Shown: one piece after another, positions 1,936 to 32,860 of the stretch
Position numbering within the stretch: the stretch's first letter is position 1
Layout: every line of letters begins with the position of its first letter
Origin: Blasia pusilla
Taxonomy: Eukaryota
NCBI GenBank assembly: GCA_050084515.1
Contig: CM114271.1
Span: 6,944,001-7,008,000, forward strand
Length of the DNA: 64,000 nucleotides
Reading direction: 5' to 3'
The notes under the pieces: generated by a model
Seen by the model: the letters and a program-made list of their open reading frames with translations, nothing else
The model's database searches: none
Told to the model about the DNA's origin: nothing
Program-made: the position numbers and the translations under genes

Positions 1936-3717
1936 GTCGCTTCCAACTTCCGGAGCAGCTGCAGCCGCTGCTCAGCCATCTTTAGGGCTTCGAAGGAACT
2001 TTCCCTCGAGACAATCGCGAATGTGGATCACGAGCCACCCAAGTATAGCGGACTTCGCCTGTCCGCCCTCCGCGGCTGGAATCGCCTGTACTGCAGTCCC
2101 GGCGCCTGCCATTCGCTTCGGGACCTGAACTCTCTCTCTCTCCACCGTCCCCGTCTCCGTGAAATTCCCCCTCTCAACGTAAGGACCGTCTACGGACCAG
2201 GCCGGGCGTCGCGACCCGGCAGGTCACGAGAAAAGCAGGGGTGAAAATCGATCGGCGCAGAGGGTGGACGATGTCGACCAATACAGTTTCGACGTCTGGG
2301 ATGCCTCGACGCTCACCCGTTCGGCGCACCTCGCGAAATGATCCGCCGCTTCCGTGCCGCCGAAGTCGCGCCAACCACGCCGCGGTGACAACCGCCGGTT
2401 TCCGCGACTGCCATCGTGATGTGCGTAACCGGAACCCGAACCGGAACGTGTGATTTGAGTGAACGGAACGTCGGAGATGACCGTAATATGATGGCGAAGT
2501 ATAAATCACGCTTAACTCACCCTGCCCACGATTAGTCTCCTCGAACTTTTAGCATGAGCTTTGAGGTTGCAACAAGAGGGGGGATAGCGTCGAATCCTCA
2601 TCATACGAAGGGAACCTACCAGCCAGTCCGATCCGGACATGCTGTTAACGGATTATATTTTCAATATTGCGCACAAAGCGTCTTCTGGGGGGGTCCAAAC
2701 GAATCAGCCTCCCTTGCTCCATCTACTAAGCTGCCATGTGTTACTTCTCTCGCTTGGTCTTCACTCCTCCGGACAAGTGACGTGTCGCGCTTGGCCATTC
2801 TCTCACAATGTTTCGCTTCGCCTTTCATCAACAATCAATCAACTAGGGCTTCGTTTCACTACACAGTTGAAAGAGTGCGTCTTTTGCTAGTCACGATAGC
2901 ACTTCGCTTTGTTAAGACTATCCATACTAGTTTTTGGACACTCACATGTTAATAATCACTTTATAGTGTCAACTCACATACAATAGTCGTCACCAAATGG
3001 AGAGGGCAACCGTTTTATAAATCAAAAAGACTTTTAATAGCCACATATTCTGAATGCTCTTTTTGAGCATGGTTATGCACATTTAGGGTTGTCGAATCTA
3101 CAACTTGTTGTTGTTGATACCTATGTCACAAAATCTCTTGCTCTTGAAAAATGCCAAAAGAACCATGAAAAGCAATGGAGGCACTATATCCCAAGGCATC
3201 CTTGTGGACAAGAGTGTGATCATGAATTTCTAGCCGCACCTTCAACGTAGGAGACAATCCATTTAACCTCCCTAAGCATGCTACTCATGAAGGTTGCCAT
3301 CGGTCAAAACCTCACAAGCGCTAAAGTTTGGTCATGTCGGGTCAAGGACCACTTCCCAAAGTGGAAATTCAACTATACTCCAAATGGAAACTTACCCGAA
3401 ATAATAGGTTTCTCTATATGGCTGAGGAAGGATTACGATCCCTCACATCAATGAGGTCGTATCAAGGGGGACCGTGGGAGGGGAGGGGGAGCTTACCCGC
3501 CTACGATTTCCTCTCATGCGAGATCTTGCTTCGTTCATCGTAAGATCAAGTTTCCATCATCCTCCTTGTCATATTCCTACTAGTATGACTCTTCTTAAGC
3601 GAGCTATTGTTCGGATGCATTCATGGCCTACATGGTCTTGTGAAGACACCTCTTCATGCAACCCACCAGAAGGAGAGGAGCACTTGTCTACGTCTACTTC
3701 TCTCCCACTAGGGTATG

Positions 3718-3854
3718 TGTCGTGCGCATACATATCGCTACAAAACATACATCGTTGGTCACATCTACACCACACAACACCGATCTTCCCCACACACGGG
3801 TCGATCCACACATGTACAAAATCAACTCATACATATATATGGAGATCACACAAC
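3718..3854 (-). repeat. E2 terminal repeat A (outer copy)
   Basis: TGTCGTGCGCATAC...GATCACACAAC; near-identical to 37281-37417, 37851-37988 and the split copy 4313-4369/13086-13170. Confidence 0.9.
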
Positions 3855-4310
3855 AAAAATAAAGAGTAGTAAAAATGGCATACCCGGCCTAAAACTCCAC
3901 TCCTAAATCTACATCGACATATCGAGCCTCGTCCACCCTGTGCTATCAAGGAATCCTCACACACATACAAGGGAGGTGCTCCAACGGCCCAACATGAGAA
4001 AGATGGCTTAAGAAAGCCATCTTCCTCTCTTATATAGGGTTGAGAAGAGCCAAAAGGCTCTTCCCCTAAAAATAGCCCTCCCCTTGGTGACCTGCGCGCA
4101 CAGGTTACCAGGGGCGGGTGACATGGTCAACAAATCACCCGGTTGTGAAAGAACTCAACATGAAAGTTGTCACAAACGACGTTCCTAACACAATGGACCT
4201 ATCCTCAACCTCATACGACACCGTGGGACAAAGTTACACTCAAGATAGTCCGCTGGCTCCTACGCCCTATCCACGATAGATCTCGGCCTATCGGCTACTC
4301 AGATGTGACA
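3855..4310 (-). repeat. E2 repeat B (promoter-bearing LTR-like unit)
   Basis: Matches 16502-16721 and 37418-37848; ends ...ATGTGACA on +; sense TATATAAG at 4036-4029. Confidence 0.88.
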
Positions 4311-4369
4311 ACTGTCGTGCGCATACATATCGCTACACATCATACATCGTTGGTCACATCTATACCACA

Positions 4370-4475
4370 TGTCGTGCGAATCCACATCGTCATATAACAT
4401 ACATCGCTGACATACCATACGCACATACATACATAACATAGACGAGAGTATCCACAAACGCAAGTGTACCACAAC
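4370..4475 (-). repeat. E1 repeat A, outer copy (106 bp)
   Basis: Direct repeat of 4847-4952. Confidence 0.93.
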
Positions 4476-4843
4476 TGAAATCCGTGAAAGACCTACTGTC
4501 ATAAAACACGTTTACAATCACATACAATCGAGCCAAACCCACTCCACGATGGGAGAATCTAGGTTGAAGCTTGAGGGAAACACCATAGCCAAGAGCTCTA
4601 CTCACTACCAAGGCTAACTCCCAACGCAACAGGCTCAACTCAAAGAATGATCGTTCTTTGAGGGCAAGCCACCTTATATCCTCCAACCTAAGAGCGGGCC
4701 CTACTGGGAAAGTCACCCCCAAGTGAGTAACCCCCAACCCTATGTATGGAACCGCATCTCTACCAAGCCACTACGGTCCTACATAAGGAATGGCCTCTAC
4801 CAAAGACACCATACTCTACGACATAATCCGTATGGTCATAACA
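4476..4843 (-). repeat. E1 repeat B, 3' copy (~368 bp, TG...CA)
   Basis: Direct repeat of 12719-13085 with roughly ten differences by eye. Confidence 0.95.
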
Positions 4844-4846
4844 AAT

Positions 4847-4952
4847 TGTCGTGCGAATCCACATCGTCATACAACATACATCATCGACATACCATACGCA
4901 CATACATACATAACATAGACGAGAGTATCCACAAACGCAAGTGTACCACAAC
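4847..4952 (-). repeat. E1 repeat A, inner copy adjacent to the PPT
   Basis: Direct repeat of 4370-4475, followed on + by TCGCCCCCCTAA (sense polypurine tract TTAGGGGGGCGA). Confidence 0.93.
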
Positions 4953-5129
4953 TCGCCCCCCTAACTGGCGGTTAGGTCCCTCTAACTCCCAGGTAGCCCT
5001 ATACATCTACTACATGCTATACACCTTCTTGGATGCCCGAATCAGAAGGCCAGGTGCTAGGTTGCCCCATCGTTAGTCGCACATCTATAATCCATATCAT
5101 GCAAAGATCAAGTCATCTACCTCTCCTAA

Positions 5130-8100
5130 GTACATCGAGGACAAACCCACCTTCCAAAGAGGAACAACATCCAAACGTGGAGTCAAACACATCATGTGCC
5201 AACCCCTAGAACACCGATCACACACCAACATACGGTGCGTTACCAGAGACCCACACAACATGCACCTCAAGCTAGCACGTATCATGGCTAAGCTTGGGTC
5301 AACAAGACCATCCACATTTGGAAGATGACATGGCGCACAATTACACACATGGTCCTTCCAAAAACTCCATCACGACCCTCCAACATGAGAACTCCGAAGC
5401 TAACACCTCACGCTTTTCGTAAAATAGTGCGGCTTGCCGCCACATCCAACGTTTTCGGGGCACAATCTGCTGCAAATAGACATAGTCCCCACATGGAACC
5501 TACTGAATCGATGGTCGATAACCTCCACTCGAATGGTTGCATACCGCAACGTATCCATGTGTTGAGCAATGGCAAGATTCTCAAAGGTCGTTGGCATAAC
5601 TCCGAAAGAGCTCGCTGCTGAGAACACATCCTCATCCACATCTCTCGGGTCATCAAGGTCCACCACCTCACTAGACTCCCGACGCAATTTTTTTTGGCAA
5701 GTCCGGATCTCGGCCGTATAATGTAAAATAAGGTGAGAAGGAAGCCAAGGATGCTTGGCGATCGAACCTATACCCCATGGCTAACCATGGCAACTGAATA
5801 TCCTAGTCTCCAAGATGCCCTTCAGAGGCCATACTTGCGCAATGCCCTCTTCACCGCCTCGAACCACACGCTCAGCCAAACCATCCGCCTCGGATGATCT
5901 CGAGACGTGGTCCGATGATCAATCAACGCCTTGTCACACAAGACCTGAAACTCACCTGAAACTCAGACTGGTCGGTCAAGACTTCAGTTTGGTGCACCAA
6001 AATGACTAAGCACTCTATCCGAAACGCATACGCCGTTCCTCACTTGCCTTGTCCGTAATGCCACCAACTCAATCCACTTGAGAAGTGCTCCACCATCACC
6101 AACACATATCGATGATGTCGTACAGTCAATGGTAAAGGTCCCGCAAAGTCCACACTCCAACGGTAACCCAACCCCATAATAGGCAAGGGGTGTAATTGTG
6201 GTGTAGGGGCATTAAATGATGCCTCACCCGGTCACAAACCATACAACGTGACACCAATCTGCTGCACTGAGTATGCATGCCACGCCACCAATATCGCCAA
6301 GGAGTAAGCTATACGACGCTTTACCCCAAAATGTCCCAACTCCTCATGGGCATGTCGCACAATGCGCTCTCTCTGAGCCAAATGTGGCACTACTCGTACT
6401 CTACCATCCTCCCACATACGGAGAATATGTGTTCCCTCCAATCGATACCTCTTAGCACGTTGAAGAACATGGTCTCGCTCCTTGGCACTAACTATGCCTG
6501 GCACCCTACTTTGGTCCGTAGGAACTCCAATACCAACGCATCTTCATGAATATCACGCTGATCCGTACCACCATCTCCAACCTTAGGATCCAAGGTGGCC
6601 ATCTACCCCTCGACTAGAGTAAGATATCATGTGGTCCTCCATACTAGAGTCCACCTAACCAACATAAAAGGCGGATGCATGCCAACCTGGCACCATCTCC
6701 TCATCAACCTCGCCATGCCATCTAGCCCCGTTGTATCCTCTTGGCTAGTACATGGGTTCCTACTCAACCCATCAAAGATCAAGGTTGGCAACTCAGGTCT
6801 ATGTACCATCCGAAGTCATACTCTGTAAGATAAGAGCCCACCGTGCAAGCTTCCCTGTAAGCTTGTCCGACTCCATCAACCACTTGAGCGGTGGTGATCG
6901 AGTAACAAGGGTAAATTGTGTGCCAAACAAGTAACACCTAAAGTGTGTGCCCACCCACACTCTTGCCAAGCACTCTCCCTCATATGAACTATAGCGCGAC
7001 TCATTTGCATTATTCGAACGACTTGCATAGGCCACCACAAACTCCATGTGTTCATCATCATGTTGTGTCAACACCGCTCCAAGTCCCAACCTACTCCAAA
7101 TGTGTAACTCAAATGGGCGCCCTCGATAGGTCCTCAAGATAGGCGCCGCCACCAACCGGGCCTTAAGCTCCCCAAAAGCTCTCTCCCGATCATCTCCCGG
7201 TGCCACTCTTGATCTGATTTCAGCAATTGGTTCAAAGGCTTTGCCATAGCACTAAATCCCTTCACATACCTCCGATAGTAGTTCGCCAATCCCATGAATG
7301 CTCGAACTCTACTCACATCTACCGGACGCGGAATAAGTGCAATAGCCTCCACCTTTGCTTGTGAACTCCCAAACCACCTGGATAGATCACATGACCCAAG
7401 TACTCAACATCCTCATGGAAGAACTTACACTTTCCTGGATGCAAACGAGACCATGAGCTTTCAACCGCTCAAACACCATCTGCAAATGTATCGATGCTCC
7501 TCCACCGTGTTATGAACACCAAGATATCATCAATGTAACACCGAACAAAATCCAACCTCGCTAGGATCCCGCCCATCACTCTTTGAAACTCGGCGGTGCA
7601 TTCTTCAACCCAAAGGGTAAGAATTTCCACCGGTACAAACAATCCTTGCCATGAGAGTTGACACCCCAAAATGTTGTCTTAGCCTTGTCACTCTCCCGAA
7701 TCGGCAATTGATGGTATCTCGCCCAAGATCCAAAGTACTGAAAATATTTGCCTGTCCCACCACATCAAAGATCTCTCTCGGTGTAGGCATGGCATACCTA
7801 TCGGCCTTGGTTTGCCGATTGATAGGGACGGTCATCTCCACACATCCGCCTATCCGTGTAGTTGCCATGCATATCCTTTTAGCAGCATGACATGTGGCCG
7901 ATGCATACTCTCCATGCGACAACTCCACTAATCCACCTTCCAAAAGGTCCAACGTCCTACTCAATCAGGTCCCTCTCCATATCACTATATCGGTAGGGAC
8001 GACGGAAGATTGGCGTATCACTAGCCAAATCAATCCGTATACCGGGTCCAACCAGAGAACCCAACTCCTTCATGCTAAAGGCAAAATAACTCCTATAAGC

Positions 8101-8180
8101 ACGTAGGAACTGTGTCAAGCGTCGTTTCTCACCTCCCGTAAGCTTGGGCCCAAGTAATGGCTCCCAAGTCTCCTCCACGG
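5130..8180 (-). pseudogene. E1 pol: RT, RNase H, integrase, C-terminal PHD finger (frameshifted)
   Basis: ORFs 7605-7964 (ADRYAMPT..EIFD), 7469-7669 (CYIDDIL), 7134-7352 (VRAFMGLANYYRRYVKGFS), 6799-7206 (RNase H), 6232-6504 (integrase HHCC start), 5097-5348 (CMLC...LVCDRCSRGWHMMC). Confidence 0.92.
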
Positions 8181-8449
8181 CATACTAGGGGAGAGGGCGA
8201 TGCCATTGGCTGCTACGCAACCCCCTCACTAGATGATACACCCTTAGCTACACCATCATCTGAGCAAATAACTCCTCCACCAGCATGAGCAACCAACTCC
8301 ACATGCCCAACCATTATATCCCATTTACTCCAAGGATGCAAAATACTACTCTCCTTGCCCCCAGCCGATGCCTCTACCGTCCCGGTAGCCATCGAGCTCA
8401 TTACAAGGGGTGGAAGACCCACAGACATAGTCCGAAGTCGATGCTGCTC

Positions 8450-9420
8450 GGCCATACCAAGACTCAAAATCCAAGTCAAACAATTCAGGTCTATGGCCTG
8501 ACCCAACACATGACGTCATGAAGCCTCAGAAATAGAAGCAACCGCTGTCACGCCAGTAGTAAATCCCATCGCACGCTCTCTCTCATCAACGTTAGGCTCC
8601 ACCAATTGTCGCACATGAGAATCCCATACAAGCCCGGACCACCTTCCCTGTAGGCATGTGACGCGGGAAAACTCACAAATGTGGGTAGTGCCATCCTAGG
8701 CTGGCCCACACGGTTCACCACTGCCATGGGTGACCGATCAATAACCCTCACCACTTGAGAAAGTCGCCAAAGATCCAAGATACTATCCACCGTAAGGCGA
8801 GGATCCTCTTTGACTTTGCATCATATGCTCGACGTAGAACCTCCTAGGCAACAAGTTTGTCCACCACAAGCGTGGGACGATGTGCACTATAAGCCAACTC
8901 ATTTGCATCCAACAACACACGCTGGTCCAATCCAAGACCGCACCTCATGAACACTCGCCATCATCCGGTCCGAGTGTCACCTAACAATGGAACATTCTCA
9001 GAATGTAAGCTAGAGCACGTGCTCGATGAACTCAAGATGTCGTAACACCCGTAACATCTCCCAAAACAATCGAGACCTAGGGTCATGTAATCCCTCACCA
9101 CGACCAAAGACGTGTATGACTCGACATGGCCATCCAAAGCAATCACCAAATCCATAGGACCAACCCTCTCAAGGTCCTGCGCCCCAACAATGCAATGTGT
9201 GATGGTAAAGCACGCTGGTACCCACGAATAGCCGATGGCGGCAACAACTCGGGATATCTCGCATCAATCGACCAATATGTCGAGATGAGACTCTCGGGCC
9301 GTCTCATCTCGCTCCACATACACGTATCTCCCCGACAGAATACCGCCTGCAACATTGCCGCCAAACCAAGTGCTAATCCCACCAAAGAGATCTAACACAC
9401 AAATGCCCCCCGGATCTTGC
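8450..9420 (-). pseudogene. DNMT3-like cytosine-5 DNA methyltransferase domain in E1 pol (frameshifted)
   Basis: Motif I VLDLFGGIS (~9371-9400), II YVYVERD, IV DLVIA/GWPC (9124-9155), VI ENVP (8988-8999), VIII AHRP (~8875), IX ERERAMGF (~8560-8585), X LGQAIDL (~8485-8506), in canonical order. Confidence 0.88.
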
Positions 9421-12400
9421 CATACAATGGGTGTAGTATCCAAAGGGGATAACCAATGGGCGTAGTAGGAGTCCGCCGTGGGGCCTCCTCTTCCTCGTGA
9501 GGTAAATGACCTCACACCAAGCCTCTGCACTAGGCGTCGCCTCTGCCGTAGTGCACCGCTTTGAACTCCAAAGTGGCACATCCAACGATGAGGATGCCAC
9601 TGCTGCAAAAATAGGGACCTCCTCTACCTCCTCATGCAGGAGAATCCATAGCAAAACATTACCCTCAAAAAGTCTCATGGCCAAGTGACTACTCCACTAA
9701 AACCACCCACGGATGCTAACACTTTGTTGGGGAAGACCCTCTGGTCGAGCCCCGAAATAAATCTCACAGAACTTGGCTCATACGTCCATCCCCGGATCGC
9801 CAACCTGGTCTATAAGACTGTCTCGGTCGAGTAATCCATCGAAAACCCATCGGTACAACATCGCTCCTCCAACTAGTACATCATACGACTCGGTGATGTG
9901 ACTACCGCAGATACTCCCAACCGGGAGCTATATCGCATGATCTGGTCTCAATCAGATAGAAAACTTCTCCCGTGTCATGAATTGAGACCTATCATTGGCT
10001 CCTCCAAGTGATGTTTGAATCTGGAATGGGCAAGGCTCAAGCTCTCCCATCCTCTTGGGGACAAAACTTCCTAACATGATCACCTCCACATGTTCAACAT
10101 GATCGCCCTTCTTGCGGGGCAGCAAATGAAGGCAATGGTCTCTGCACAAATGTCCCTCTAGGACTTGATCGAGGTCGCGTGTACCCCCACGACTCCCACT
10201 ACTACTACCACCACCACTACTACGAGATCGTGAGGTGGGCGGTGAACACGAGAAGTAGTAGTTGTATCCCTCTGCACGCGGATGTCACCACTCTCTCCTT
10301 CACCATGTTAAGCTCAATCTTCTCAGATAGAGCAAACACATGGGTCAATGTGGATGAATCATCACTCATAAGAGTAGCATCACGCACCCTACGGCGCAAA
10401 TCTCGCTCCAAGATCCCATACAAAATCGATCGCTCTGATCTCCTCGGTCACACCCTGCGGGTAATCGAAATCAGCGTCGCATACGCATGTATGCCTCACG
10501 AAGACTCTCACCATTCTTTCGCTCAAAGTCCTGAAGATTCCTCAACTTCTCCGTCTTCACTCCTTGATAGTTCTTCTTCAACCTCTTGAAGAACTGCAAT
10601 CAAGGCTAAACGATGGTGGGGCACTAGTACCTCCACTAGTACCCCCACTAGTACCTCCACGGTACCCCCACTCCGGCTCGCTCGTACCACTCAACGTCGG
10701 GTGGTTGGCATAGTAGGAGCACTACTACCAATACCACCATGGGTGATAGACACATAGCCTGGAGACCAATATTGTCTCCATGCCTCAATCTCAAACAACA
10801 TGGTCCTTCCTAAACTCATGGTAATCATCCATGGGTGGTCCTTCCAAGTCTTTGAAACAACCCTTCCAAGCCAAGAAGGGTGTAAACAACGTATGTTCGC
10901 AACATCTCGCATATCACACCACGTATCAAACTCCTGCATGAAGTCCTCTAACTCAATGGTACCCATTGCACGCGAGTATCGTCGTGGGGCCATCATGGGC
11001 CCATATCCACAAATCCATGTCCCAAATCAATGGAGTGCAACACTCGATAACAACGTAGAAGACTCGGTGTTTGGAACACCCTCGTCCTCCTCTTCATCAA
11101 CCGTCGGAAGTGGAAAAGGTAGCCGATACCTAAATCCACTCCGTGTGAAACCACCACTGTCCGCACCACGGTCCCCAACCAGACCACCCGACAACTCTAT
11201 GATGACCAACGCCGATGCCGCACCACTACCAAATTACCCAAGTGACGTCGATGTCGCTCTATTAGTGTAGCTCTACTAGCTATGGGTGTAGGCAACCTAA
11301 CCTCTCATCACCACAAGAAGACTCCCACGGTCTACTGGTCATCACTCCAGCCTCACTATCAGTAGCACACAGGAGTAACACTACTATGGAAATCAGCGTC
11401 AACCCTAACAATGGGCGCGCAAGCAAGAAGCACAATGGAGGGGATCCAAACACAGGAAATCCAACGACAACCCTCCAATCGCAAATGGAAATCAAGGTAA
11501 CCACATCCACCAAACGTGGTGCCCTCTCGAATCCACAAAACCCACCACACAATTCTAACGCATAATAGCTACTCCGCCGCTGGTCGATGACGTGCTAGTC
11601 GAACTCATGACACCTAAAAATATCACTGCATGGAGAGGCTACACCGTATTATGCGCTAGAGGTACATCAACCAAAAACCTGAGATGCATAAAGTGCCTAA
11701 CACCTCTCCGAACAAAGACCAAATGAGCTACAATCATCAGACACCTGGCATAGTTAAGAACTCAGCATTAAGCGTCCTCCAGGCAGAATAGCCCAAAGAT
11801 GGGTGACCAGTTATGCAAAACTCAAATCCTAATTCCTGCAAAAATTGCCTCACGCCCAAGCAAGCAAGCTTGCTTGCTTGCTCCTTGCTCCTTGCTCCTT
11901 GCTCCTTACTCCGCCTCTCTCGCCCCGAGCTACCACGAGTTGCCTCGAAGCCTCGAAGCCTCGAAACGCCGAGACATGCCCCTATCGCCCCGTTCGCCAT
12001 GCTTCGCTATGGAGAGAGGTCCAACCAGGGCGCCCCCAATGGGATAGGCGTCTCCAACAATGAACGAGTCACCAACCAACCAGCCCCTCCGATCCGCTGT
12101 CCACCATAGCCAGACCTTGAGCTAGTCCGCAAAATTTCGATCAGAAATTACTTCACAAATAGGTGACCGAAATCAAATCTATTTCAATCAGAATTCAATT
12201 GACCACCATAGCTATCTCCCCACAAAAACTCAGCTACAACCGAGCTCTGTACTCCGAGCTAAAAATCAGACAAACTTGCTGTCCATACACCTCTAGAACC
12301 GCAAATCCGACAGCGCTTCCGCCAAGTTTCATGCACGCAGAAATTCGCAATGCTCCACGCACTCGAGCAGATCGCTTCACATGAGATCACAATACAAGTA

Positions 12401-12718
12401 GCAATAGGAACCTCTCACCCGATCTGGATGAACTTCAACAGAGCTTCCGCACTCCAAGCTCTCCACATCAGAAAACTGTCGAACACGAACCAGAATCTTC
12501 AATGCTTGATAACTTCCAACTCCCTTGACGAAATCCGCGATCTGGTAGCGTTGGAAAGCTCTCAGCAAGGCGCTTCTTTTCCAACCAACCATGCACCTGA
12601 TTCACACCTCCAACATAGGCAACAAGCCGTGAACATCCACGGCTGAGTACACAATCAGCCCTAACCAGATCCTACTGATCTAATCGAAGCTACCATCGAT
12701 CTACTCCAGTTCTTTGAG

Positions 12719-13085
12719 TGAAATCCGTGAAAGACCTACTGTCATAAAACACGTTTACAATCACATAAAATCGAGCCAAACCCACTCCACGATGGGAGAA
12801 TCTAGGTTGAAGCTTGCGGGAAACACCATAGCCAAGAGCTCTACTCACTACCAAGGCTAACTCCCAATAATAACAGGCTCAACTCAAAGAATGATCGTTC
12901 TTTGAGGGCAAGCCACCTTATATCCTCCAACCTAAGAGCGGGCCCTACTGGGAAAGTCACCCCTAAGTGAGTAACCCCAACCCTATGTATGGAACCGCAT
13001 CTCTACCAAGCCACTACGGTCCTACATAAGGAATGGCCTCTACCAGCACACCATACTCTACGACATAATCCGTATGGTCATGACA
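12719..13085 (-). repeat. E1 repeat B, 5' copy; forms the element's 5' terminus and contains a TATA box
   Basis: Repeat of 4476-4843; sense ATATAAG at 12923-12917; TSD follows at 13086. Confidence 0.93.
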
Positions 13086-13249
13086 CACACAACACCGATC
13101 TTCCCCACACACGCGTCGATCCACACATGTAAAAAAATTAACTCATACATATACATGGAGATCACACAACCGCCCCCCTAGCTGGCAATTGGATCCCCCC
13201 AACTCCAGATAGAAAATATCACATCTCTCTAACATGACCTACTACCCTA

Positions 13250-16116
13250 TACACATCTCGGACACATCCATCGTCCCGTGGGAACCACATCAAGAGGGGG
13301 GGTCGGACATGACATATGCCACCCTCGAGAACAACCATCACATACCAACATGGTGGCTGCATCCCTCGCAGATCCGCACAACATACACCTCAAGCTTGCA
13401 GGTACCATTGCCAAGCTCGGATCCACCGTCCCATCTACATTCGGAAGATGACATGGCGCACAATTGCGCACATGATCCATCCAAACCATACCATCCCGTC
13501 CCTCCGACATGAGGACTCCGATCGGTAATACCTCGCGCACACATAGGATCGTGCGCCCTGTAGTGACATCTAGCGTCGTGGATGCCGCTTGCTATAAATA
13601 TACGTAATCTCCAGGATGAAACCTCCTAATTCTTAGACGATAACCTCCTCCACGAATGGTCGCGTACGTCAATGTATCTCTATGTTGAGCAATACCTAAG
13701 TTCTCAAAGGCCATAGGCATAACTCTACGAAAAACCTCCGCCCTCTGAGAACATGCTTGTACCCACACATTTGGATCATCAAGATCTAACACCTCCGCCA
13801 TGTCACGTCGAATCGCTGCAGGTAAATCTGGCTCTCTTCCAAAGAGCAAAAAGTACGGTGAAAATGACGCCAAGGATGCCTGCCGACTAAAGCGATAACC
13901 CATAGCCAACCATGGCAACTGTAGGTCCCACTCCCTCAACTGTCCCTGCTGCAAGCCATGCTTGGGCAATCCTCTCTTCACCGTCTGTTCCACTTTCTCC
14001 GCCAACCCATCCGTCTCAGGATGATCTCTGGATGTGGTGCGGTAATCTATCAGCGCCTGATCACACAAGGCCTGAAACTCTCTCCTGAACTCGGTACCCT
14101 AGTCAGTCAACACCTCCGCCGGTGCACCAAAGTGACTAAGCACACGATCTAGAAACGCATAAGTTGTTCCCTCGCTCGCCTTGTCTGGTAGTGTAACCAA
14201 CTCTATCCACTTTTAGAAATGCTCCACCATGACCAACACGTACCTATGATGACGCCCCGTCAATGGCAAAGGTCCCGCAAAGTCTAAACTTCACCGATAA
14301 CCTAAACCCATAATCGGCAAAGGATGTAACTGCGGAGTGGGAGCATTGAAGGATGCTCGCGCTCTGTCACATACCATACATCTGGCCACCAACTGTTGTA
14401 CCCTAGTATGCATGTCGCGCCACCCTAGTAAGTACGCTTCACTCCAAAATGTCCCAACTCCTCGTGGGCATGTCGCACTACACGTGCTCGCTGAGAAGGA
14501 TGAGGTACCACTTGTATCCTATTATCTCCCCATACCCGCAAAATGTGAGTCCCCTCCCACCTGAACCTCCTGGCTCTCTGTAGGATCCGATCCTGCTCCC
14601 TAGCACTCACTGTACTCGCTATGACGCCAATGCGCAAGAACTCCACAACCTCCACGTCGTCATGGATATCACAACCACCTGTTGCCTCCTCACTAACCTC
14701 CGGATCGAAAGACTCATCATCCAACCCCACCACTAGAGTCATCACCTGTGGCTGACCTGCTATAGTCAACTAACAAAGATAGGCAGATGCATGCCAACCC
14801 GACACCATCTCCTCATCACTCTCTCCGTGCCATCGAGCTCCTGTGTAATCTCTCTGAATCGGACATGGGTTACGACTCAACCCATCCGCATCTTGGTTCA
14901 GCCGACCTGGCCTATGAACCACCTCAAACTCATACTCCTGTAGTAATAGAGCCCACCTGGCAAGCTTTCCCATAAGCTTGTCGGACTCCATCAACCACCT
15001 CAACGATTGATGATTAGTGATAAGTGTGAAAGGGTTGCCGAATAAATAGCACTTGAAATGTGCCACGGCCCACATTGCAGCCAAGCACTCTCCCTCGTAG
15101 GAGTTGTACTTTGCCTCTGCAATGTTGTTCGATCGGCTTGCGTAAGCCACAACGAACTCCCTCTCCTCGTCATCCCTCTGAGTAAGCACTGCTCCTAGAC
15201 CCAACATGCTCAAATCCATATGTAACTGGAATGGGCGACCCCTAACCGGTCTCTATAAAATTGGTGAGGACGTCAACCTGTCCTTGAGCTCCTGAAATGC
15301 TCGCTCATGATCATCTCCCCACAACCAAACCTGATCAAGTCTCTTCAACAAGGTCAAAGACTTTACGATCGCACTAAAACCCTTGACATACCATCCATAG
15401 AAGTTCGCTAGTCCAAGAAATACTCGTACTCGACTCACATCTGTAGGGCGTGGAATCTGCACAATAGCCTCTACCTTCGTCTGCTGAACGCCTAACCCAC
15501 TCGGGTATATGGTGTGTCCCAAGTACTGAATCTGCTCCTCAAAGAATCTGCATTTGCCTGGATGTAACTTCAATCCATGTAACTGCAATCGCCGAAACAC
15601 CTCCTCCAAGTGTCGCTCATGCTCCTCAACCGTGGAACTGAAGATAAGAATATCATCTATGTAACATCGTACAAAATCCAAGCCAGCCAAAATCCTATCC
15701 ATCACTCTCTGAAACTCTACAGGCGCGATCTTCAACCCAAATGGTAGGAACCGCCACTGATACAAGCAATCTCTCCCGAACCGATCTATCCCCCAGAATG
15801 TTGTCTTCTCCTTGTCCTCCAACCTGATAGGAAGCTGATGATAGCCAAAGACGGAGATCTAAATCTTGAAGATCTTTGCATGCCCTACCGCATCAAAGAT
15901 CTCCTCAAGAGTAGGCATGGCATACCGATCTGACTGTCGGTTGATAGGACGGTAATCTCCACACATCCGCCTATCCGTCCAATTGCCATATATATCCTTC
16001 TTCGCCGGCATGACTCTGGCAGATGCATACTCCCCATGTGATAACTCCACAAGTCCTACCTCCAACAAGTCCTGACTCCTGCTCTGAATCAAAGCTCGCT
16101 CCATATCAGAATACAT
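13250..16116 (-). pseudogene. E2 pol remnant: RT, RNase H, integrase, PHD finger
   Basis: ORFs 15859-16116, 15253-15822 (WRFLPFGLK..CYIDDILIFS), 14770-15219 (RNase H; ADGLSR), 14425-14769, 13592-14068 (TTSRDHPETDGLAEKV), 13247-13540 (C4HC3 PHD). Confidence 0.93.
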
Positions 16117-18320
16117 GTAGGCGCACCCCTATGCGCGCGTCCCACCTCGGGGGGGGGGCGTGCGCCGTTCGCGCCCTAACCCTACCCCTAGCCACCCTTT
16201 ACTTGATAGCCCCCCGGCGGCTGTAAGCCCTAACTCTCCTTCTTGCAAAATCCCGACATTCTCGCTATTAGACGACGCTATACCTAGCGTCACAACCTGC
16301 GCTACACCCTGCTGTTGTCCCCCATTAATCCGCACCAGCAAAATTTGAGAAAAACGGATAACGCTTCCGCCCACGGCCTTCCAAACAGAAAAATGACAAA
16401 CACCCGCAATACACGCGTATCCAGGGGCCCCCGACCAAGGCAACTCGATTGCTTACCTGAAAACAACGAATTCCCACCAGCCCCCTGCCATCTTTCTCAC
16501 GTAAAAATAAAGAGTAGTAAAAATGGCACATCCAGAATCAAGGAATCCGGACGCTAGCACCCTAGTCCTATCTCACACACATACAAGGGAGGTGTTGCAA
16601 CGGCCCAACATGAAAAAAATGGCTTAAGAAAGACATCTTCCTCTCTTATATAGGGTTGGGAAGAGCCAAAAGGCTCTTCCCCTAAAAATAGCCCTCCCCT
16701 TGGTAACGTGCGCGCACAGGTATATTTATGATATAATACAAAATATTCATTATTTACTTACCATACATTCATTGCATTTAGGGCTCTGTAAGGAGGACAA
16801 GGGATAGGATCCTCAAAGGTATATCACAAACAACATCCATCTTCTTGCACTACTACATTTGCGACTGATTTACAAGTTACATGAGCCAAAACTCGGTGAT
16901 AGTACAATTGCAATAAAATCACACCGGGCTTACAACTTTACGAGTCTCACACTCGTAATTGACTCGCAAACTTGAGAAGTGGACTTACAAATTATGGTCG
17001 TAATGTAGCTTAAAGGTTCCATTTTCTTATACTTGCAAATCCTACACAGTTTAATCCCAAAATGCTGGTACGATGCTTGTAAGAGAAAGTAACTTTTTCA
17101 CGTCTTTGCAAGCCACTTTTTGGTGATTAAGAGTCTGACTAGTTACAAATAAGTCTTAAATAGCAATTCCAAAAAATAGTTTTTTTTTGCATTTGCAAAA
17201 TAGTGGTTTTGGACAACGGTTTGATTAGTCACAAAATACCTAGTCCAACTTTTTTTCACTCACAAACTGGTTTTTTTGGTCTCACAAGGGCCTCTCAAAG
17301 TTGTGGTTTTCTACAACTGCAAAGTAGTTGTTTTCTACTCCTCTTAAATTTGGTTTTAACTCATTCTTGGGTCGAGAAAATCTGTTTCATCGAGGATTTA
17401 TCTCCTTCCAACTTTTTCTTATGCATGATTTTGCTTTCTTCTCTTTCATTTCTTTGTTATTAAAACCAATTTTTTTGGGAAAAAAACATGTACAATTATG
17501 AGCTTCATTCCACACATATAAGACGCTAATTCATTTGAATACATAAATATAAATCATATGCCTATTTCTTGGATATTTTTTTCTCTAAAATTCATATTTG
17601 TGATTAGAAACTAAGTGATGAGCTATCTGGATAAAAATACTTATGTGGGTCTTAAATTTTTTTCGTGAAACCCTAAGAATTCTCTAGGTCTGAAATCATT
17701 ACTTATTTGAAGGACTATAATTAAAATTTGGAATATCTTAACTATTTAGAAGAAAACATGTATATATTTGGTGGTTTTTGTAAAATTTCTACCACATCTA
17801 TGATTATAAATTTAATTTTAATATTTTTCTTACAATGCTTAATAAATCTAATATACAAGAAAATAGTAAAATAAATTCATCTTGCAACAAATTGATATCG
17901 AATTCAATGGTACTAATCTTGATGAATATTTCTACCTCTTTTTCTCCTCAAATTCATGATAGTTAAAATACATCAAAGCCTTCTTATGTGGACTAGAAGT
18001 AGATGGATTTGTTTTTTTTACGAAACGAAACTCAAAATCCAAAATTTCTTTCGATCATGGAAAAAAGTCCATAACTAAGAACGTTACCAAAGGAACTACA
18101 TCTTTCACTTAGTTGTTAATGTGAGTTCAATTGCAATATTCATAAGAAAACTTCTTTCTTACTAAAGCTCATACCAAATATTTTATGATACTTTCCAACC
18201 AAATTAATCTGAATTTTGAAGCCAATTCATTTAAATCATGTTTCATAATATTTATCAGATTTTATATATATATACATACACATATTAGGATTCCTTTATA
18301 GGTGATGAGGATATGATTAT

Positions 18321-21300
18321 TGTGGTGCGCATACACATCGTTACACAACCCACATCGTTGGTCACATCTACACACCACACAACACCGATCTTCCCCAACA
18401 TACGGATATATCCACACATAAATTAAACATACTCACGCATATACGGTGGGACCCCACAACCGCCCCCCTAGTTGGCAGTTGGGCCCCCCTTACTCCAGAT
18501 AGCACACACGTATGTCCTCGACATGATCTCCTACCTATACACATCTAGCACTATTGGTGTCGTCATCCCCGTAACACTGCCACACTGCAGCAACCCGCTG
18601 TAGTGATCCCTTCGAAGAGATCTAACACTCTCGTACCCTGCTCCAAACATAGACACCATTCCACGCCTGCCTCACGAGCTCATCTGCACTCCACGCATCT
18701 CAACGCTCGTCTCCAACAACAATAAAGAAGTTTGCACCATGGGAAGAGACACCCACCTTGGCATGTCTCTCCGTGGGATTATTCGCTATAAGAATGTCCT
18801 CCGCATGTGTGCTCCTCTCCCCGAACCCTCCTCATCAACTAACACCACCTGTAAATGCTGCCAATGTGATCACCGTATCCTCATGTGGTTGACCACCACT
18901 ACTCCTTCCAAACAATACTGGTAGATGGCTCACTCATCCGTCATCTGATCGCCATCCTAGCCGATAAAAAACCGTCTCCTCCCAAAAATCCAGACTGAAA
19001 CCAAGGGGATACAACACCGAACTCCCTACCAATACATCATACGACTCTACCAATGTCGTAATCGCCCGACTGCGCACCATCGCACTATCCGACTCATGCT
19101 ATGGCTATAGTCTAACCACCAACTCCTATCGAGTCATGTAATGGATGGATGATACGCCCCCAATAGAGATATGTATCTGAAAGGGACACGCTCAATGTCG
19201 CCTTTCCATAATTCCAACGCCAAACACGTCGCCTTCCCTAACATCAAGGGTTGCGCTCCCGAATCAAGTAGGACTCGTTGCGGGTAGTACATCGTACCTG
19301 TGGGACAAACCAAGAGAAAAACTCCTGCTCGATTATCCAACAACACCACACCTGGTGTGATCATGGCTCGCTCTATCGCAGACATAGTTGGCATATCTAT
19401 CAACTTTGTCACCGCCACATGCCATGAGTCACTAGGAGACGTCTCGAGCACATGCTTTGAGGGGCTAGTCCACAACCTCCTCAACTACTTCTAAACGAGA
19501 GGCAGTCACCTCTCCACGCTCACACAATGTGGCGGCCAGTCGGAACACCTCCGTTGGTCCAACTCCCAACGTCGCCAACTCTATGGCAGAAAATAATGGA
19601 GTTTGGCTTATCCTAGTGGTCACCTCCAACAATATGGTCGACATTGGCTCCTCCCGAGCCAACATAGGAGTTGTCTCTCCAACTCCTCGTGACGTCAATG
19701 CACCTACCTCATCTGTGGGTACTAATGATCGTCAAGGCATGATTGACGATATATGTAGTGCCTGCGACAATGTGAACGACTGGGAAATCCTAGCCTGCCG
19801 CCCATTGGTCCCCTCTTGTGGGTCAATCTCCACCCACCTCTCAGTGGCTCGATCACTCTTGCAGCACCTCGAGTCACCACCGCAGTAGCCTCAACCTAAG
19901 CTGCATTGCACATAAACCTCTACCTCGTATAGTCCTCCCCCGTATTATGATACGACGTGGAGGTTGGAGCCACACTTGCTACTCTTGGCTCCAGACCTGC
20001 CTATAGCTGCATGATCATCATGGCGGAAATCCTCTACTCCAACTGATCAATGCGCGAAAGGAGCGCTGCATCGGGTGCCCGTCCTCCATCTCCTATGACT
20101 GGTGATGGCACTCTACCACCACAATCATCCACTTCTCAATCTCCATCAACTCCTTGCCCCCAAGTCATCTACCTACCTCTGGGCGTACCTCCAGGCGAAG
20201 ATCATAACCCCTATCCCTAGTGTGACCATATCGTTGAGAATGATCACACTGCAACTATGGTGGGGCCATCCTCTGTGGCTCCTGAGCATTTGGAGGCACT
20301 CGTGGCCCTTTTCCATGTTGTGGGCAATCCCTCTACCTATGTGACCCACCACACGTCCAACAAGCCAACCCTGGTCCCTGCTCGGAAACATATGTCGATA
20401 TGGGCCGTTGCCTCATTGGGTCATGATACCCGCCATGCTCTGTGGGCCCACCAGCTCGCTCCTATGGTATTGGTGCATGTTGGGGCACATATGGGTCTAC
20501 TCCTACTCATCGATCCGTCGTATCCTACGAAAATCCCGTGGTCACCACCTACTCCTCACTCATGTTGAGCTCTACTCGCTCAAACAACTCTAACATCACC
20601 GTCAATGTGGGATTCGCCTTGTGAAGCAACATTGCATCCCAAACTCTCCTCCATAGCTCCCCGTCCAGCACCCCGAACCAATACCATACTGACTGCACCT
20701 CAACCATCCCATATGTGGCAACGATCAACTGTCACATGCGTGTGAACGCCTCCCTCAGGCTCTCACCCGATGTGCACTGAAAATCCTGTAGACTCTTCAG
20801 CTTGTCGGTCCGCACACCCTAGTAGCTCCTTTCTAAGTGTCAGAAGAAATCCACTATAGGACTTAAACTTGGTGGTCCTTTACCATAAGAGGTCTCTGCC
20901 ACCTCATCACTCTCACTGCCATCATCTCCATCTAGTCCCCGGGCTAATGGTGTAGATCTCTCTACCCTCACTATCCCATTATACGCCTCGCGACCACTAG
21001 TGAACATATACCCTAGAGCCCAATACACCCTCTAGGCATCAATCTCTATAAAGTATAGAGATCGAAACTCCGTGTAGTCATCCATCGGCGGATCCTCCAA
21101 GTGCTTGAACAACCCCTTCCATGCCATAAGAGGGTTGAACCGCGTAGGGGTCCGTATCTCTTGGAAGTCGCACCATGTGTCGAACTCCTGGATGAAACCG
21201 TCAAGATCTATGGTGCCCACTGCACCTGAGAAACGAGGCATGCCCCAATGGCCCATGTCATCCATCTCTCTCCACGTATCATCGTCCGCGTCCGAGATCT

Positions 21301-21600
21301 CGTCACCAGACCCGCTCTCTAGTGATGACGATCCAACCACGGATGGGAGTCGGGTGGTTCATCACTCAAAATCCCTCAATACCTCACACCACTCCGTGTC
21401 ACTCTACTACCACTACTGGTACTACCCTGTTCTTTCAAACCCTCGGAGAATGCCTTGATGATAACCCTCTCTCATCCGCTCAAGCACTCAGACTCACGAA
21501 GAGTCTCCTACACTCCTCACTAGCTCACCTATGCTAATGGTAATCGTGTGACGACACACCCGACCTCACGCACACTGAACATTCGGTTCCCATGAGCCTC
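18321..21600 (-). mobile_element. Ty3/gypsy E4 (same lineage), internally deleted: single A repeat, PPT, MTase motif-I remnant, protease, gag
   Basis: A 18321-18460, PPT complement 18461-18470, VLDLFEGIT ~18600-18630, protease VLLDSGAQPLMLG (ORF 19134-19484), gag GFIQEFDTWCD (ORF 21032-21340). The right boundary is approximate. Confidence 0.82.
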
Positions 21601-27720: not shown

Positions 27721-27768
27721 GGTAACATGATCACGCCCTCCAACCTACTGCACCGTCAACACTCACTC

Positions 27769-28813
27769 TGTCGTGCGCCTACTCTTCTTTGAACGTTAAT
27801 CTTTGTTGTTGAGCGGAAGCGTGCGTTCAGTAGGTCACGCTCTCGACGCTGATCTATATCCAAACATGCACTCTAGTTAGTTGGGTCTGGATCAATCAAC
27901 AAGCTAACTTTCAGAGTTCTTGTCTTGGTCTTACATCAAGCTCAACTTTCCTAGTCTTACGGTTTACAACACATGCAAGTCTCGAAAGATTTGGGACAGA
28001 CTTTCTGGTCGGTTTAGGAACCTCAAACGGCGTTTCGCGCCTAGTAGTTCCAATTCTCTGATAGACATCTACTGAGTTCCTAATTGAGACTCACACAAAA
28101 TCAATCACGAGTCATAATCTAAGTGTGGCATACAAAATCCACTCCTTTTGATCAGGTTTGGGTTTCGAGTTCTAACGCCAAACTCTCCTTCCATCCCGTG
28201 CCCTTGAGATGCCGTTTGGTGCTCAAAGTGGGGATTCGTGTTCCAAGACATCTTGGAGAGACTTCTCCCTTACAAATACTTCTGGACATCTCGAGGGTCC
28301 CCCTAACTTTAGGGAAGTTAGGGGGACCCCGCAGCTGAAGCCCTCAAAGTGGCCCTCAACCCGATTGCTCTCCCAATTGGTTTTGGCTAATATCTCAGCC
28401 TCTACTTACGCATTTGCTAAGATCTTTGATGCGTTAGAAGCGCCACAAGATAAGCTTTCCAACGCGCCCTTATTTGTTCCAAAATAATTTTGGAGGTAAA
28501 CGTTATGGTCCGAAATACAATCAACTTCCCCAAACACTAGTCGCGTTCCAAAACCGGTTCTCACCTCTTTGGCAACCAACCTTCCAGGACTCAACTCATC
28601 TCAAGTCTTGGCTCGTGTTTGGTCTAGGTTTCTTGGTCGCGACCACTTACGCAAGAAACGCACAACTCTGTTCCGCATTTCATATCTTGGACTTTCCGAA
28701 GAGACCTTCCAAAAGCCTCTCCAAAGCGCGATCATCGCAGCGTGAGTCCACTTGAGTTCTGATGTTATGCTTGGTGCCTATTTGGTGTTCGTTTGGTTGT
28801 GAGGTTTGCAACA
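27769..28813 (-). mobile_element. Solo LTR (~1.05 kb), related to the LTR at 30385-31386
   Basis: TG...CA ends; 5-bp TSD CACTC at 27764-27768 and 28814-28818; shares GCGGAAGCGTGCGTTCAGTA and other blocks with 33068-34027. Confidence 0.88.
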
Positions 28814-29466: not shown

Positions 29467-30093
29467 TATCACATCTTACTTCAACGTAGGTAGAGTTCTA
29501 TCACGTTGACGGGATAGAGAGTCAGCTGGTTGTTTGGGTATAACTTTGTCCCAAGATGTCGGATGAGGTTGGCCACATGTCTGTTGTGTCGGAAACATCG
29601 TTTTTGGCGGTTTCCCTATTTTGGTTTTAGTCCGTCAGGTGAGCTGTTGACCGAGTCAACGATCATCTGATAACATGTGCACACAGGTTATAATTGGTAG
29701 GGCTCTTTTTGGGGGAAGATCCTTTTGGCTCTTCTTAAGGGTATAAGAGTGAGGAAGAGGCTTTCCCAAGCCATCTTTCTCATGTTGAGTCTTAGGAGCG
29801 CCTCTCTTGCATAGACGGTGTGGGTGTGTAGGAGTTAGGGTGCTAGCGTGCGGATTCCCTCATAGTAGAGGGTGGATGTGGTTCAAAATGCCAATGTAGA
29901 TTCATGAGTGGAGTTTTAGGTTGTGTGAGCTATTTTTACTACTCTTGATTTTGGTTGTGGGGTCCCACGGTATATGTGTGAGTATGTTCCATTTATGTGT
30001 GGATCCATCCGTATGTTGGGGAAGATTGGTGTTGTGTGGTGTGTAAATGTGACCAGCAATGTGAGTTGTGTAGTGATGTGTATGTGTACGAAA
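29467..30093 (+). mobile_element. Solo B+A terminal unit of the split-terminus gypsy lineage
   Basis: Reverse-complement homology to B (29467-~29953) then A (~29954-30093); 4-bp TSD CCTC at 29463-29466 and 30094-30097. Confidence 0.8.
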
Positions 30094-31388
30094 CCTCTTT
30101 GAATATATTTTTGTCATGTCTAAATGATCGTGACTCTTGCTCAAAAGTGCTACGTACTTCGTTATCCCACATTTTTGTACGTCGCTTGTCCAAAGCCTTG
30201 CTCCAAATTGTTGACCATCCCCTCGTAATTGCGTATTCTTCTCCATAATGTCAAGCTCCAATTCATGGCATTTTTCCATATTCTCCCCAATATGGTGTGA
30301 TTGAAGAAGATAAGTTGTGTAGGTTCTGAATTAGGGAAATTGCGCTCATGTTAATGCAATGGAGCATGCACGTCGCGCCCCTATTGTCGCGACCCTCATG
30401 ACCAAACAAGTGCCAAGCGGAACATCGGAACATTAGCGGGCTCACGCTAAGATGGTTTGCGCGTTGGAGTTGTCTCAAAGAGGAGACAAGAGACGAGACG
30501 CTAGCGAGAAGTCGCGTTTCAGATGTGATGGTCGCGACTCAGAAACCAAGACCAAATGCGGAATGAGACTTGAAAGAAGTCGAGTCTAGGAAGTGGGTTG
30601 CCAAAGGAAAGATCCGGATTTGGAACGCCACTTACGTTTGAGAGTTTCCGACTTTATTTATGGTCATAACTTTTAGTGCCAAGATGAGTTTGGAGCAAAT
30701 AAGGGTGCGTTGGAAATCTTATGGAGAGCCGGTCGAAACGCACCAAAGATCGCTGCAAACGCATAAGCAGAGACCGAGATACAACCCGAAAACGACTGTA
30801 AGTGGAGTCGGGTTGAGGGCCACAATGAAGGGCCTGAACCTCTTTTCCCAAAGGGGAGGGGTCATTGGAGAACCCCATAAGTACTAGTAAGGGGGAAGGT
30901 CTCCGAGAGTGCTTGGAACCCAAACCCCACTTTGGGCGCCACGGGGCGGCTCAAGGGCATGGAACGGAACGCGAGTTTGGGCGTTGGGTTGGAAAACCTG
31001 CACCAAGTCCATTGAGGCGATTTTAGACATCCCTCTTGGATTTCATGCCGCGACTCAATTACTTGGGTCTCGGTTTGGAACTCACACGAGGACCGTTGAA
31101 TAGTTGGGATTGCTAGGCGTGCAAGTGCCGTTTCAGATCCCTGGACTAACCAGGAAGTCTGTTCCAAGTCTTGAAGGACTTGCCCTGTGTTGGGAGCTAG
31201 GAACTAAGGAAGGTTGAGCTTGATGAGACGCCGAGTTGAGGACTCGGTGGGTTGGAACGCCGGTTGGCCAAACCCGACTAACGAGAGTGCGTGTTTGGGT
31301 GCAGATCGGCGATGAGTTCGTGACGTACTGAACGCACGCTTCCGCAACACTAAAGATTGACGTTCAAGGAGAATAGGGGCGCGACAAG

Positions 31389-31400
31389 TGGTATCAGAGC
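31389..31400 (+). other. Primer-binding site complementary to initiator tRNA-Met
   Basis: TGGTATCAGAGC 2 nt after the LTR's CA end. Confidence 0.92.
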
Positions 31401-31529
31401 TAATCCTTGGTGAGCGAGAACTTGGGGTCGTGGGATCATCCGGACGCTTGGGAAATTTCAAGGTAGCGGCTAGACTCGGACGCTCGAGGAGGGACGCAAG
31501 AAACGAGGAGGAGATCTGAGTGAGTTGGC

Positions 31530-32860
31530 TTGGAGATGGCGATCGAGGGAGAACAACCCAAGAAGCGCCGAATCAAGCGACGTGAACCGAGAGAGGAACC
31601 AATGCCGGACCGTGAAGCTATAGAGGAGACGGAGAATCTCGAAGAGTTGAATGCCAGTCGTGAGGACGTCCCAGTGGCGACTCCTTCCACGGGGCTAGTG
31701 GGCCCAAACTCAGGGGAAAGGACGGAGTCGAGCCAGACGTTGGACTTGTTGAAGGTGTTGGTGGAGCAGATGTCCCAGCAAAGCAAGCGGATTGTAGAGT
31801 TAGAGGCCACTCGAAACCCGAGTGCGGGCAAAAAGCTCTGCAAGACCACGCCATTTACTGGAGTGGGGCGCTCGCGGAAAGTGAAGGATTTCCTTACGGA
31901 ACTGGAACTGTACTTCGAGGCGCATAAGGCTGCTGAGCAGGACAAGGTGACGGTAGCCGTTACTTTCCTGAAGGATCATGCTCTACAATGGTGGACCGCT
32001 CAACGAGAGGAATATCTGGGCGGCGAGTCACCTCTAAGTTGGGAGGAGTTCAAGGAGTTGATTGGGGATCGGTTCACTCCGGAGTACCAAGGGTTGCGTG
32101 ACACGGTGGAGTGCGTGCGGATGCGGCAGAGTGGTTCCTTAAGCGCGTATGTGAGGGAGTTTAGTGCGAAATTGACTTCTAGTCCGAAGATGGATGAGCA
32201 CGCGAAGAAGGCTATCTTCATTAGTGGACTCAAGCCGAGCGCTGAGAAGGCCCTTTACCGAATGCCGACGTTGCCAGAGACCTGCGCGGACCTTTTGAAG
32301 CTAGCGGAGCGGATTGGGGACGATGAGGTCCAAACCCAGAAACCCTTCGAGTCAAAAGTTTTTTCGAAGAAGTCAAAAAATAAGGAGGCGTTCAAAAGAG
32401 GCTGGAGTGGGGGCCAACACGAACCATGAGAGTCGTCTGCCCCGGCAGTAAAACGAGTGGAACTTCATGCGAAGCCGAAAGGAGGACAACACTCAAAGAC
32501 AGGAAACGGCAAGGTCGTATGCTACAACTGTGGCGATCCGGGGCACCTGTCGAAAGGGTGTTCAAAACCGAAGGTTAGTAGTGGGAGTATGATTGCGTTT
32601 GCTGCTAAGCATCTGTTGGCGGGCGATATCGAGACGTCCCTTCAAGTCACCAAAAGGACGCACAATTTGGTGTACCTAAGATCCAAGATTGCTGATCGCG
32701 ATGTGTTGTTGCTCGTGGATACAGGTGCTTCGCACTCCTTCCTAAGCCCGAGAATCGTGAAGGAACTGGGGCTATCTACCTCTAAGGCGGACGAGCCCAT
32801 TCGAGTGGGATTTGCAGGAGGCAAGTCTCATCGGACTTCTGATTTGGTCTTGACAAATGA
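31530..32860 (+). pseudogene. Gag (capsid-like domain, CCHC knuckle) and aspartic protease, with an in-frame stop at 32427-32429
   Basis: FLKDHALQWW..SWEEFKELI..RQSGSLSAYVREF; CYNCGDPGHLSKGC; LLVDTGASHSF; ORFs 31530 and 32457 are in the same frame. Confidence 0.9.

Follow-up and report, generated by a model that had tools for sequence, protein, structure and literature searches.

Priming of minus-strand synthesis by an element's own RNA 5′ end (self-priming) is established for the retrotransposon Tf1 and has been predicted for Tf1/sushi elements, moss Tcn1 and TAR copia elements, altogether 12% of REXdb elements (PMC6317226; PMC4600332; 10.1101/2022.12.06.519325). For one club-moss Tcn1 element, no evidence of self-priming was reported (PMC2864245). 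A second relevant system is KnitGypsy-Dnmt3, in which Gypsy domains are combined with DIRS-like repeats (de Mendoza et al. 2018, PMC5890265). The subject of this study is a 64,000-nt stretch of Blasia pusilla DNA (hereafter the window; assembly GCA_050084515.1, contig CM114271.1, positions 6,944,001 to 7,008,000), which carries on its minus strand a retrotransposon that we call E1. On sequence grounds, E1 belongs to the Ty3/gypsy elements; it combines a C5 methylase, a DDE integrase and a PHD finger with split repeats, termed A and B. As in Tf1, the primer of minus-strand synthesis in its lineage is very probably the 5′ end of the element's own RNA.

For the comparisons that follow, S1 denotes the subfamily of E1, S2, S3 and S4 are other subfamilies of the same genome, M1 stands for relatives from metagenome contigs, and M2 is a further lineage. 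A sequence-only reading of the window had identified the sense sequence ACTCAAAGAA, at plus-strand positions 12710-12719, as the exact complement of a segment of B at 12882-12891, and these coordinates were confirmed. The TATA box that it named (TATAAG from 12922) lies 31 nt upstream of the complementary segment, the hairpin at 12883-12906 is present, and a TGG-type primer-binding site (PBS) is indeed absent, with no TGG after B. The observation can be refined: the full PBS runs from 12719 to 12707, and the 5′ B repeat, B1, from 13085 to 12720 (Table 1). The A at 12719 most plausibly opens the PBS; its assignment to the terminal CA of a long terminal repeat (LTR) was rejected, since the B ends of S2 and S3 lack CA and every PBS starts with AC. 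The perfect match in E1 is 10 nt, compared with 13 nt in 17 of 31 S1 5′ ends, because a single base close to the start site is missing from E1. When the genome was searched with a pattern spanning the B end and the PBS, 1157 matches were obtained, against 1 for the control.

Table 1. Features of E1 and of a related 5′ end, in window positions (PPT, polypurine tract; RT, reverse transcriptase; U3 and U5, unique 3′ and 5′ regions; R, repeated region)
Feature	Position	Strand	Remarks
E1, whole element	4370-13085	minus	from self-comparison; order B1, internal, PPT, A1, B2, A2
Target duplication, 4 bp	13086..13089; second copy 4369-4366	minus	TGTG
B1 (5′ B repeat)	12720..13085	minus	begins TGTCA; contains promoter, R and U5
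TATA-like box	12917..12922	minus	30 nt before CA; same spacing in S2, S3, S4 and M1
U3 arm of start-site hairpin	12897..12906	minus	direct repeat of PBS; core unchanged across an alignment of 8 S1/M1 copies
Predicted RNA 5′ end and self-primer	12882..12893	minus	initiator-like CA at 12893-12892; GT end at 12883-12882; start predicted
Second helix	12770..12883	minus	12883-12876 (across predicted cut) pairs with 12777-12770 in U5
PBS	12707..12719	minus	13 nt directly after B1; begins AC, ends TG; not tRNA-like
Internal region	4963..12706	minus	decayed gag, C5 methylase (about 9000-9600), RT, RNase H, DDE integrase, PHD finger
PPT	4954..4962	minus	ends GCG; abuts A1
A1 repeat	4847..4953	minus	ends GACA; near-palindromic junction to B2
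B2 repeat	4477..4843	minus	end coincides exactly with PBS boundary
A2 repeat	4370..4476	minus	begins exactly at PPT boundary; ends CA; right end of E1
Decayed S2 5′ end	16487..16721	minus	different sequence, same TATA/hairpin/primer/PBS layout

Across subfamilies, the right end of B was taken from the B2|A2 joint, and the longest complement of the bases that follow it was sought in the copy's own B. In S1, 29 of 31 5′ ends had a complement of at least 10 nt, all 29 starting at the B boundary. S2 has a different sequence with a 14-nt match (at least 10 nt in 20 of 28 candidates) and S3 a match of 14-16 nt (at least 14 nt in 18 of 24 candidates); of the misses in S2 and S3, several are no genuine 5′ ends and the remainder are decayed. 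One decayed S4 copy has a 10-nt match, and among the M1 metagenome relatives 7 of 13 ends have at least 10 nt, with the primer core as in S1. An alignment of eight M1 and S1 copies with a mean identity of 80% shows no variation in the primer, the PBS or the U3 arm. The PBSs of S1-S3 begin with AC at the B boundary and end in a TG that lies opposite a CA about 30 nt past a TATA-like box; in S1-S4 the match extends distally to the CA at TATA+30, give or take at most 2 nt. Covariation across subfamilies, which the sequence-only reading had proposed as a check, is borne out, complementarity being kept in the same register in the diverged S1, S2 and S3 and in the one S4 copy.

Controls behaved differently. 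Compared with the B of an unrelated subfamily, a PBS matched 7 nt at most, and 24-mers moved 30 nt inward matched no more than 7 nt except for one 19-nt value in M1, which is attributed to the foldback locus L306. In a positional scan of 583 TATAAR sites in 557 kb, a sample deliberately rich in these elements, 41 hits fell at an offset of 24-36, compared with 2-6 for every one of six other offsets. The match between PBS and primer is not due to chance.

Priming by a full transfer RNA (tRNA) requires TGG. The primer could instead be a host tRNA half or another small RNA, with the self-complement coincidental, and half-tRNA priming exists in plant copia lineages (PMC6317226). The comparison with host tRNAs went the way of the earlier claim: 52 distinct tRNAs matched the PBSs by 0-2 nt at their 3′ ends and by 5-6 nt anywhere. 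These 52 genes cover 24 anticodons, include some organellar ones and do not make up a complete set; their best match of 6 nt equals background, for which the mode is also 6 nt. Moreover, the three PBS sequences would each need an RNA of their own, each matching its own start site. We consider a tRNA-derived or other small-RNA primer extremely unlikely.

RNA folding was then examined. Folded from the predicted start, primer and PBS pair with a probability (P) of at least 0.98 in 20 of 20 S1 copies and at least 0.73 in 13 of 13 S2 copies, and with P above 0.5 in 6 of 7 M1 copies. The fold of E1 itself contains the primer:PBS duplex (whole-fold z of -1.7, not significant), and the stretch 3′ of the PBS folds locally. 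All 8 of 8 pairs of the second helix are possible in S1, S2, S3, M1 and M2, with one G-C/A-T swap. When the fold was begun 30 nt upstream, pairing was abolished in S2 (P at most 0.14 in 13 of 13) and weakened in S1. Because primer:PBS pairing is lost or weakened in these extended folds, the modelling suggests that the U3 arm would mask the primer copy in any RNA containing U3, such as the B2 end. The hairpin loop (window 12892-12897) is hypervariable among copies that are otherwise 96-97% identical, and it often shifts toward a perfect palindrome.

A further line of evidence comes from the edges of the elements. In S1, a two-base change at the PBS edge that extends the complement upstream could be seen in 11 of 100, among the matches listed (of 1157). 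In S2 the first base beyond the PBS differs in 110 of 665 pattern matches; among the matches listed (of these 110), 65 of 100 have C followed by a scrambled base and 21 of 100 a templated GC extension. The base after the variant C is C in 20, T in 16, G in 19 and A in 10, against C in 83, T in 9, G in 8 and A in 0 after the usual T (chi-square p about 9e-11). Such a C with a scrambled base is suggestive of what a copied cap plus one untemplated base would leave. At S3 B|A joints, an A or AC remnant is kept in 5 of 39, and the joint of L346, a B-A unit, holds a 27-nt copy of primer plus hairpin from a different B variant. For Tf1, roughly half of the cDNA molecules are reported to keep a copy of the PBS, and untemplated bases are added (PMC11042837), a likeness to the retained primer copy and the suggested untemplated bases of the E1 family. 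Taken as sequence, the edge changes suggest that the PBS may be recopied from the RNA 5′ end.

The retained copy in L346 also bears on a variant of this mechanism, in which the same sequence primes and is supplied not by the cis 5′ end but by the B2 copy, an RNA started upstream or a co-packaged RNA. Coming from a different B variant, that copy extends 14 nt past the usual start, and the metagenome locus L306 ends in a PBS plus inverted U3 running to the attachment-site (att) CA. Cases of this kind are nevertheless rare (3 matches to the pattern, as opposed to 1157 normal S1 ends). The usual match does not continue past the initiator, S2 pairing is blocked by the U3 hairpin when U3 is present, as in the upstream-extended folds above, and L306 may be an assembly misjoin. 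We therefore hold a supply in trans or from B2 to be very unlikely. The pattern designed for such joints gave three matches in all (L346, L347 and L348); the foldbacks in L347 and L348 were not counted as evidence, as DNA-level inversion or repair fits them equally well. The L306 structure (3235-3880) reads PPT-A1-B, then PBS and inverted U3 to the att CA, and represents either an over-long primer copy or a misjoin.

Transcription was followed in three raw RNA sequencing (RNA-seq) runs with the same species label. Sense transcription covers B and the internal region, and read depth declines through U5. Large groups of reads over the left edge of B, among the matches listed, run into A. Because these left-edge reads come from A, and A directly precedes B1 in 0 of 30 loci, the start is placed inside B1, and the data are consistent with a transcript that starts inside B1 and ends inside B2. 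The only "begin" pile, in L030 (1662, one run), was rejected as the start, as it lies just before the TATA box and beside a variant zone. In the most expressed variant (L030:1668-1680), the segment that separates the TATA box from the U3 arm is altered, and the arm is extended to match the whole PBS start.

Several observations weigh against self-priming. No pile of 5′ ends was seen at the predicted start in the three RNA-seq runs, among the matches listed, where reads from B2 overlie the site. E1 and the variants that resemble it (L001, L002 and L018) have an altered start region without a matching change in the PBS. In S3 the primer:PBS probability exceeds 0.5 in just 2 of 14, a U5 stretch competing for the pairing, and the folded copies had been preselected for an intact primer and PBS. 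The three-duplex "pretzel" of Tf1, in which the two stretches beside the PBS both pair with the LTR, is not clearly seen, and the second helix is not adjacent to the PBS. Edge variants were counted per copy and not per event, copies are not independent, and T-to-C is a common transition; the cap reading is therefore only suggestive. L346, for its part, was found by a pattern designed for such joints and is 1 of 58 S1 joints. The pairing could accordingly be real and yet structural or vestigial, as part of a leader structure that serves packaging, dimerisation or the control of translation, with something else as the primer: folding by itself cannot demonstrate priming, and the weak S3 fold and the RNA-seq runs, which show no 5′ pile, speak for this explanation. 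It does not account well for a match that begins exactly at the B end, the same base at which B2|A2 joints end, nor for changes just past the PBS that mirror the sequence upstream of the start, and no other primer candidate was found. We regard a structural or vestigial role as very unlikely.

Self-priming, as the sequence-only reading had proposed it, is thus supported by covariation, by the tRNA misfit and by the PBS-edge changes, the start at 12892-12893 being a prediction. The label "Tf1-like" fits the mechanism and not the family: the chromodomain is absent, and for the E1 family we claim a Tf1-type mechanism without membership in Tf1/sushi. In the proposed cycle, RNA polymerase II would start at the CA about 30 nt past the TATA box in B1, and the first 12-14 nt of the RNA, which are complementary to the B1-adjacent PBS, would pair with it as folding predicts. 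By analogy with Tf1, RNase H would cut after the conserved GU to leave a 3′-OH, from which RT would copy U5 and R, transfer to B2 and continue; the U3 hairpin may conceal the other primer copy, that of B2. From the PPT, the plus strand would be made by copying A, B and finally the primer, so that the PBS would be rewritten each cycle. The primer would thereby set the right end of B, and the PPT the left end of A. At B2|A2 these ends adjoin without an intervening base, probably through end-joining, and integrase would act at the palindromic A|B junction, presumably by way of a circle, to give the observed B-internal-A-B-A layout with its 4-bp duplications.

The layout of the family was compared with this scheme. 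A genome search with the PPT pattern gave 791 matches, against 0 for the control; the PPT-pattern and PHD searches recovered S1 alone plus, where checked, S2. Of 58 S1 joints, 57 show the usual B2|A2 sequence or differ from it by one substituted base. The A|B junction (window 4843-4850; L031-L060, L121-L180 and L201-L230) is a 10-bp palindrome, GACA-GC-TGTC, in three subfamilies, and cutting after each CA of it would yield two ready-processed integrase ends. The A1|B2 spacer of E1 is ATT, a variant that occurs within S1, and most copies have GC or decay products of GC. That the varying spacer might mark recent end-joining was considered and mostly rejected, since GC, GT, AC and AT are one palindrome decayed at CHG sites. 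The 4-bp target duplications are perfect in 6 of 7 whole elements (one has a mismatch), with one further pair, and E1 itself is inserted inside the A repeat of an S2 element. Identity of A1 and A2, examined for signs that the repeats are regenerated each cycle, was 97.6% within copies and 96.6-98.0% between copies. The mirror layout B-A-B-internal-A was found in 0 of 30 loci (L001-L030), although a plain circle model predicts mirror copies; two equal A|B sites would be expected from a simple circle, yet A stands directly before B1 in none of the 30. Solo B-A units (L203, L208, L211, L212, L217, L221-L223, L226, L228 and L346) also occur and are common in S3; they are the expected remnant of recombination between B1 and B2.

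Coding content was examined by Pfam scans, which matched RNase H on a piece of E1, RT and PHD on a neighbouring element, and DNA_methylase, rve and PHD on other natural copies. PF00145 matched one neighbouring copy from the same genome and two metagenome copies; the methylase pieces of E1 itself gave no Pfam match and show C5 methylase motifs only, located before RT. No Chromo domain appeared in the Pfam scan of natural copies; in E1 the PHD finger is C-terminal. The best PDB matches of the RT were to Ty3 RT. Named relatives come from Calypogeia, Riccia, Marchantia, Sphagnum, Klebsormidium and Closterium, and of the distant relatives scanned (25 selected of 150), 20 have a PHD finger, 4 a methylase and none a chromodomain. 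No relative was found in the viral contigs searched. The distant relatives P0122-P0156 have an insert of 400-700 aa between RNase H and integrase, with a methylase match in three cases; unlike this insert, the methylase precedes RT in the E1 family and in P0150.

By its sequence the E1 family most resembles KnitGypsy-Dnmt3, with Gypsy RT, RNase H and DDE integrase, a methylase within Pol and DIRS-like split repeats, and it shares Gypsy Pol, C5 methylase and such repeats with the streptophyte Gypsy-DNMT3 elements as well (PMC5890265). Proteins of K. nitens are among the relatives, which compared with that paper also come from liverworts, Sphagnum and Closterium. The main text of PMC5890265 contains none of the terms PBS, priming, primer binding, target site or PHD. 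Elements of the DIRS order (A-coding-B-A-B) have the same repeat order, described for SymbioDIRS-Dnmt3 (PMC5890265), and carry a tyrosine recombinase, in place of which the E1 family has an rve DDE integrase and 4-bp target site duplications. Tf1/Tf2 of Schizosaccharomyces pombe and Tf1/sushi elements, among them Tcn1 of moss and club-moss, share with E1 a repeat-adjacent PBS complementary to the RNA 5′ end, which in E1 is a predicted one, and the lack of a tRNA primer. Compared with Tf1/sushi, the E1 family has a PHD finger instead of a chromodomain, a methylase domain, a U3 hairpin, a 13-14-nt primer and split repeats (B-internal-A-B-A) in place of ordinary paired LTRs. The TAR copia lineage (Houba, Osr-1) belongs to the Copia superfamily, and split repeats or a methylase are not reported for it in the accessible sources. 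The Phygy and Selgy non-chromoviruses of REXdb are, like E1, Gypsy elements of non-seed plants without a chromodomain and with 4-bp target site duplications. Unlike E1, they use tRNA-Trp and tRNA-Ala primers and have no extra domain (REXdb supplement file 3), and membership of E1 in Phygy/Selgy was rejected; the preference of Phygy for NCGN targets was also not seen for the E1 family.

Other features of the region were noted. Window positions 3718-4369, 13086-16121, 18321-21400, 29534-30094 and 37281-42627 hold more nested or decayed S2-type elements of the E1 family. About 1-kb inverted repeats with 93% identity, at 30383-34029, belong to a different element type and have a diverged partial copy at 27764-28786. 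Elsewhere, L007/L008 (G000:C1 7357389-7361873) consist of B and 5′ internal fragments repeated in tandem, with one unit about every 1036 nt.

Self-priming itself is already known, and what would be new is its probable occurrence in a methylase-carrying, split-repeat Gypsy family. No description of priming for the Gypsy-DNMT3 family was found in the 2018 paper, a 2026 preprint or the wider literature (including PMC7466625), in mostly open-access main texts, so that an earlier description is possible. For a known family whose combination of Gypsy domains and DIRS-like repeats had been mechanistically unexplained, the results supply the missing priming step, and they link the positions of primer and PPT to the split-repeat layout. 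They also assign the predicted RNA start, cut site and cDNA ends to exact positions that can be tested. Priming independent of tRNA is extended to a chromodomain-less Gypsy lineage that is abundant (over 1100 S1 and 600 S2 5′ ends) and transcribed. Tentatively, and with rather more doubt than confidence, we propose that a separate Gypsy lineage with methylase and PHD finger, ranging from charophytes to bryophytes, evolved self-priming independently of Tf1/sushi. Its cDNA ends would be primer-free and exactly joined B to A, and its DDE integrase would cut a built-in GACA-GC-TGTC palindrome instead of processing linear ends. A form resembling a 2-LTR circle is a dead end for most retroelements. 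If the proposal is true, the usual substrate of this LTR retrotransposon would be such an end-joined, 2-LTR-circle-like form.
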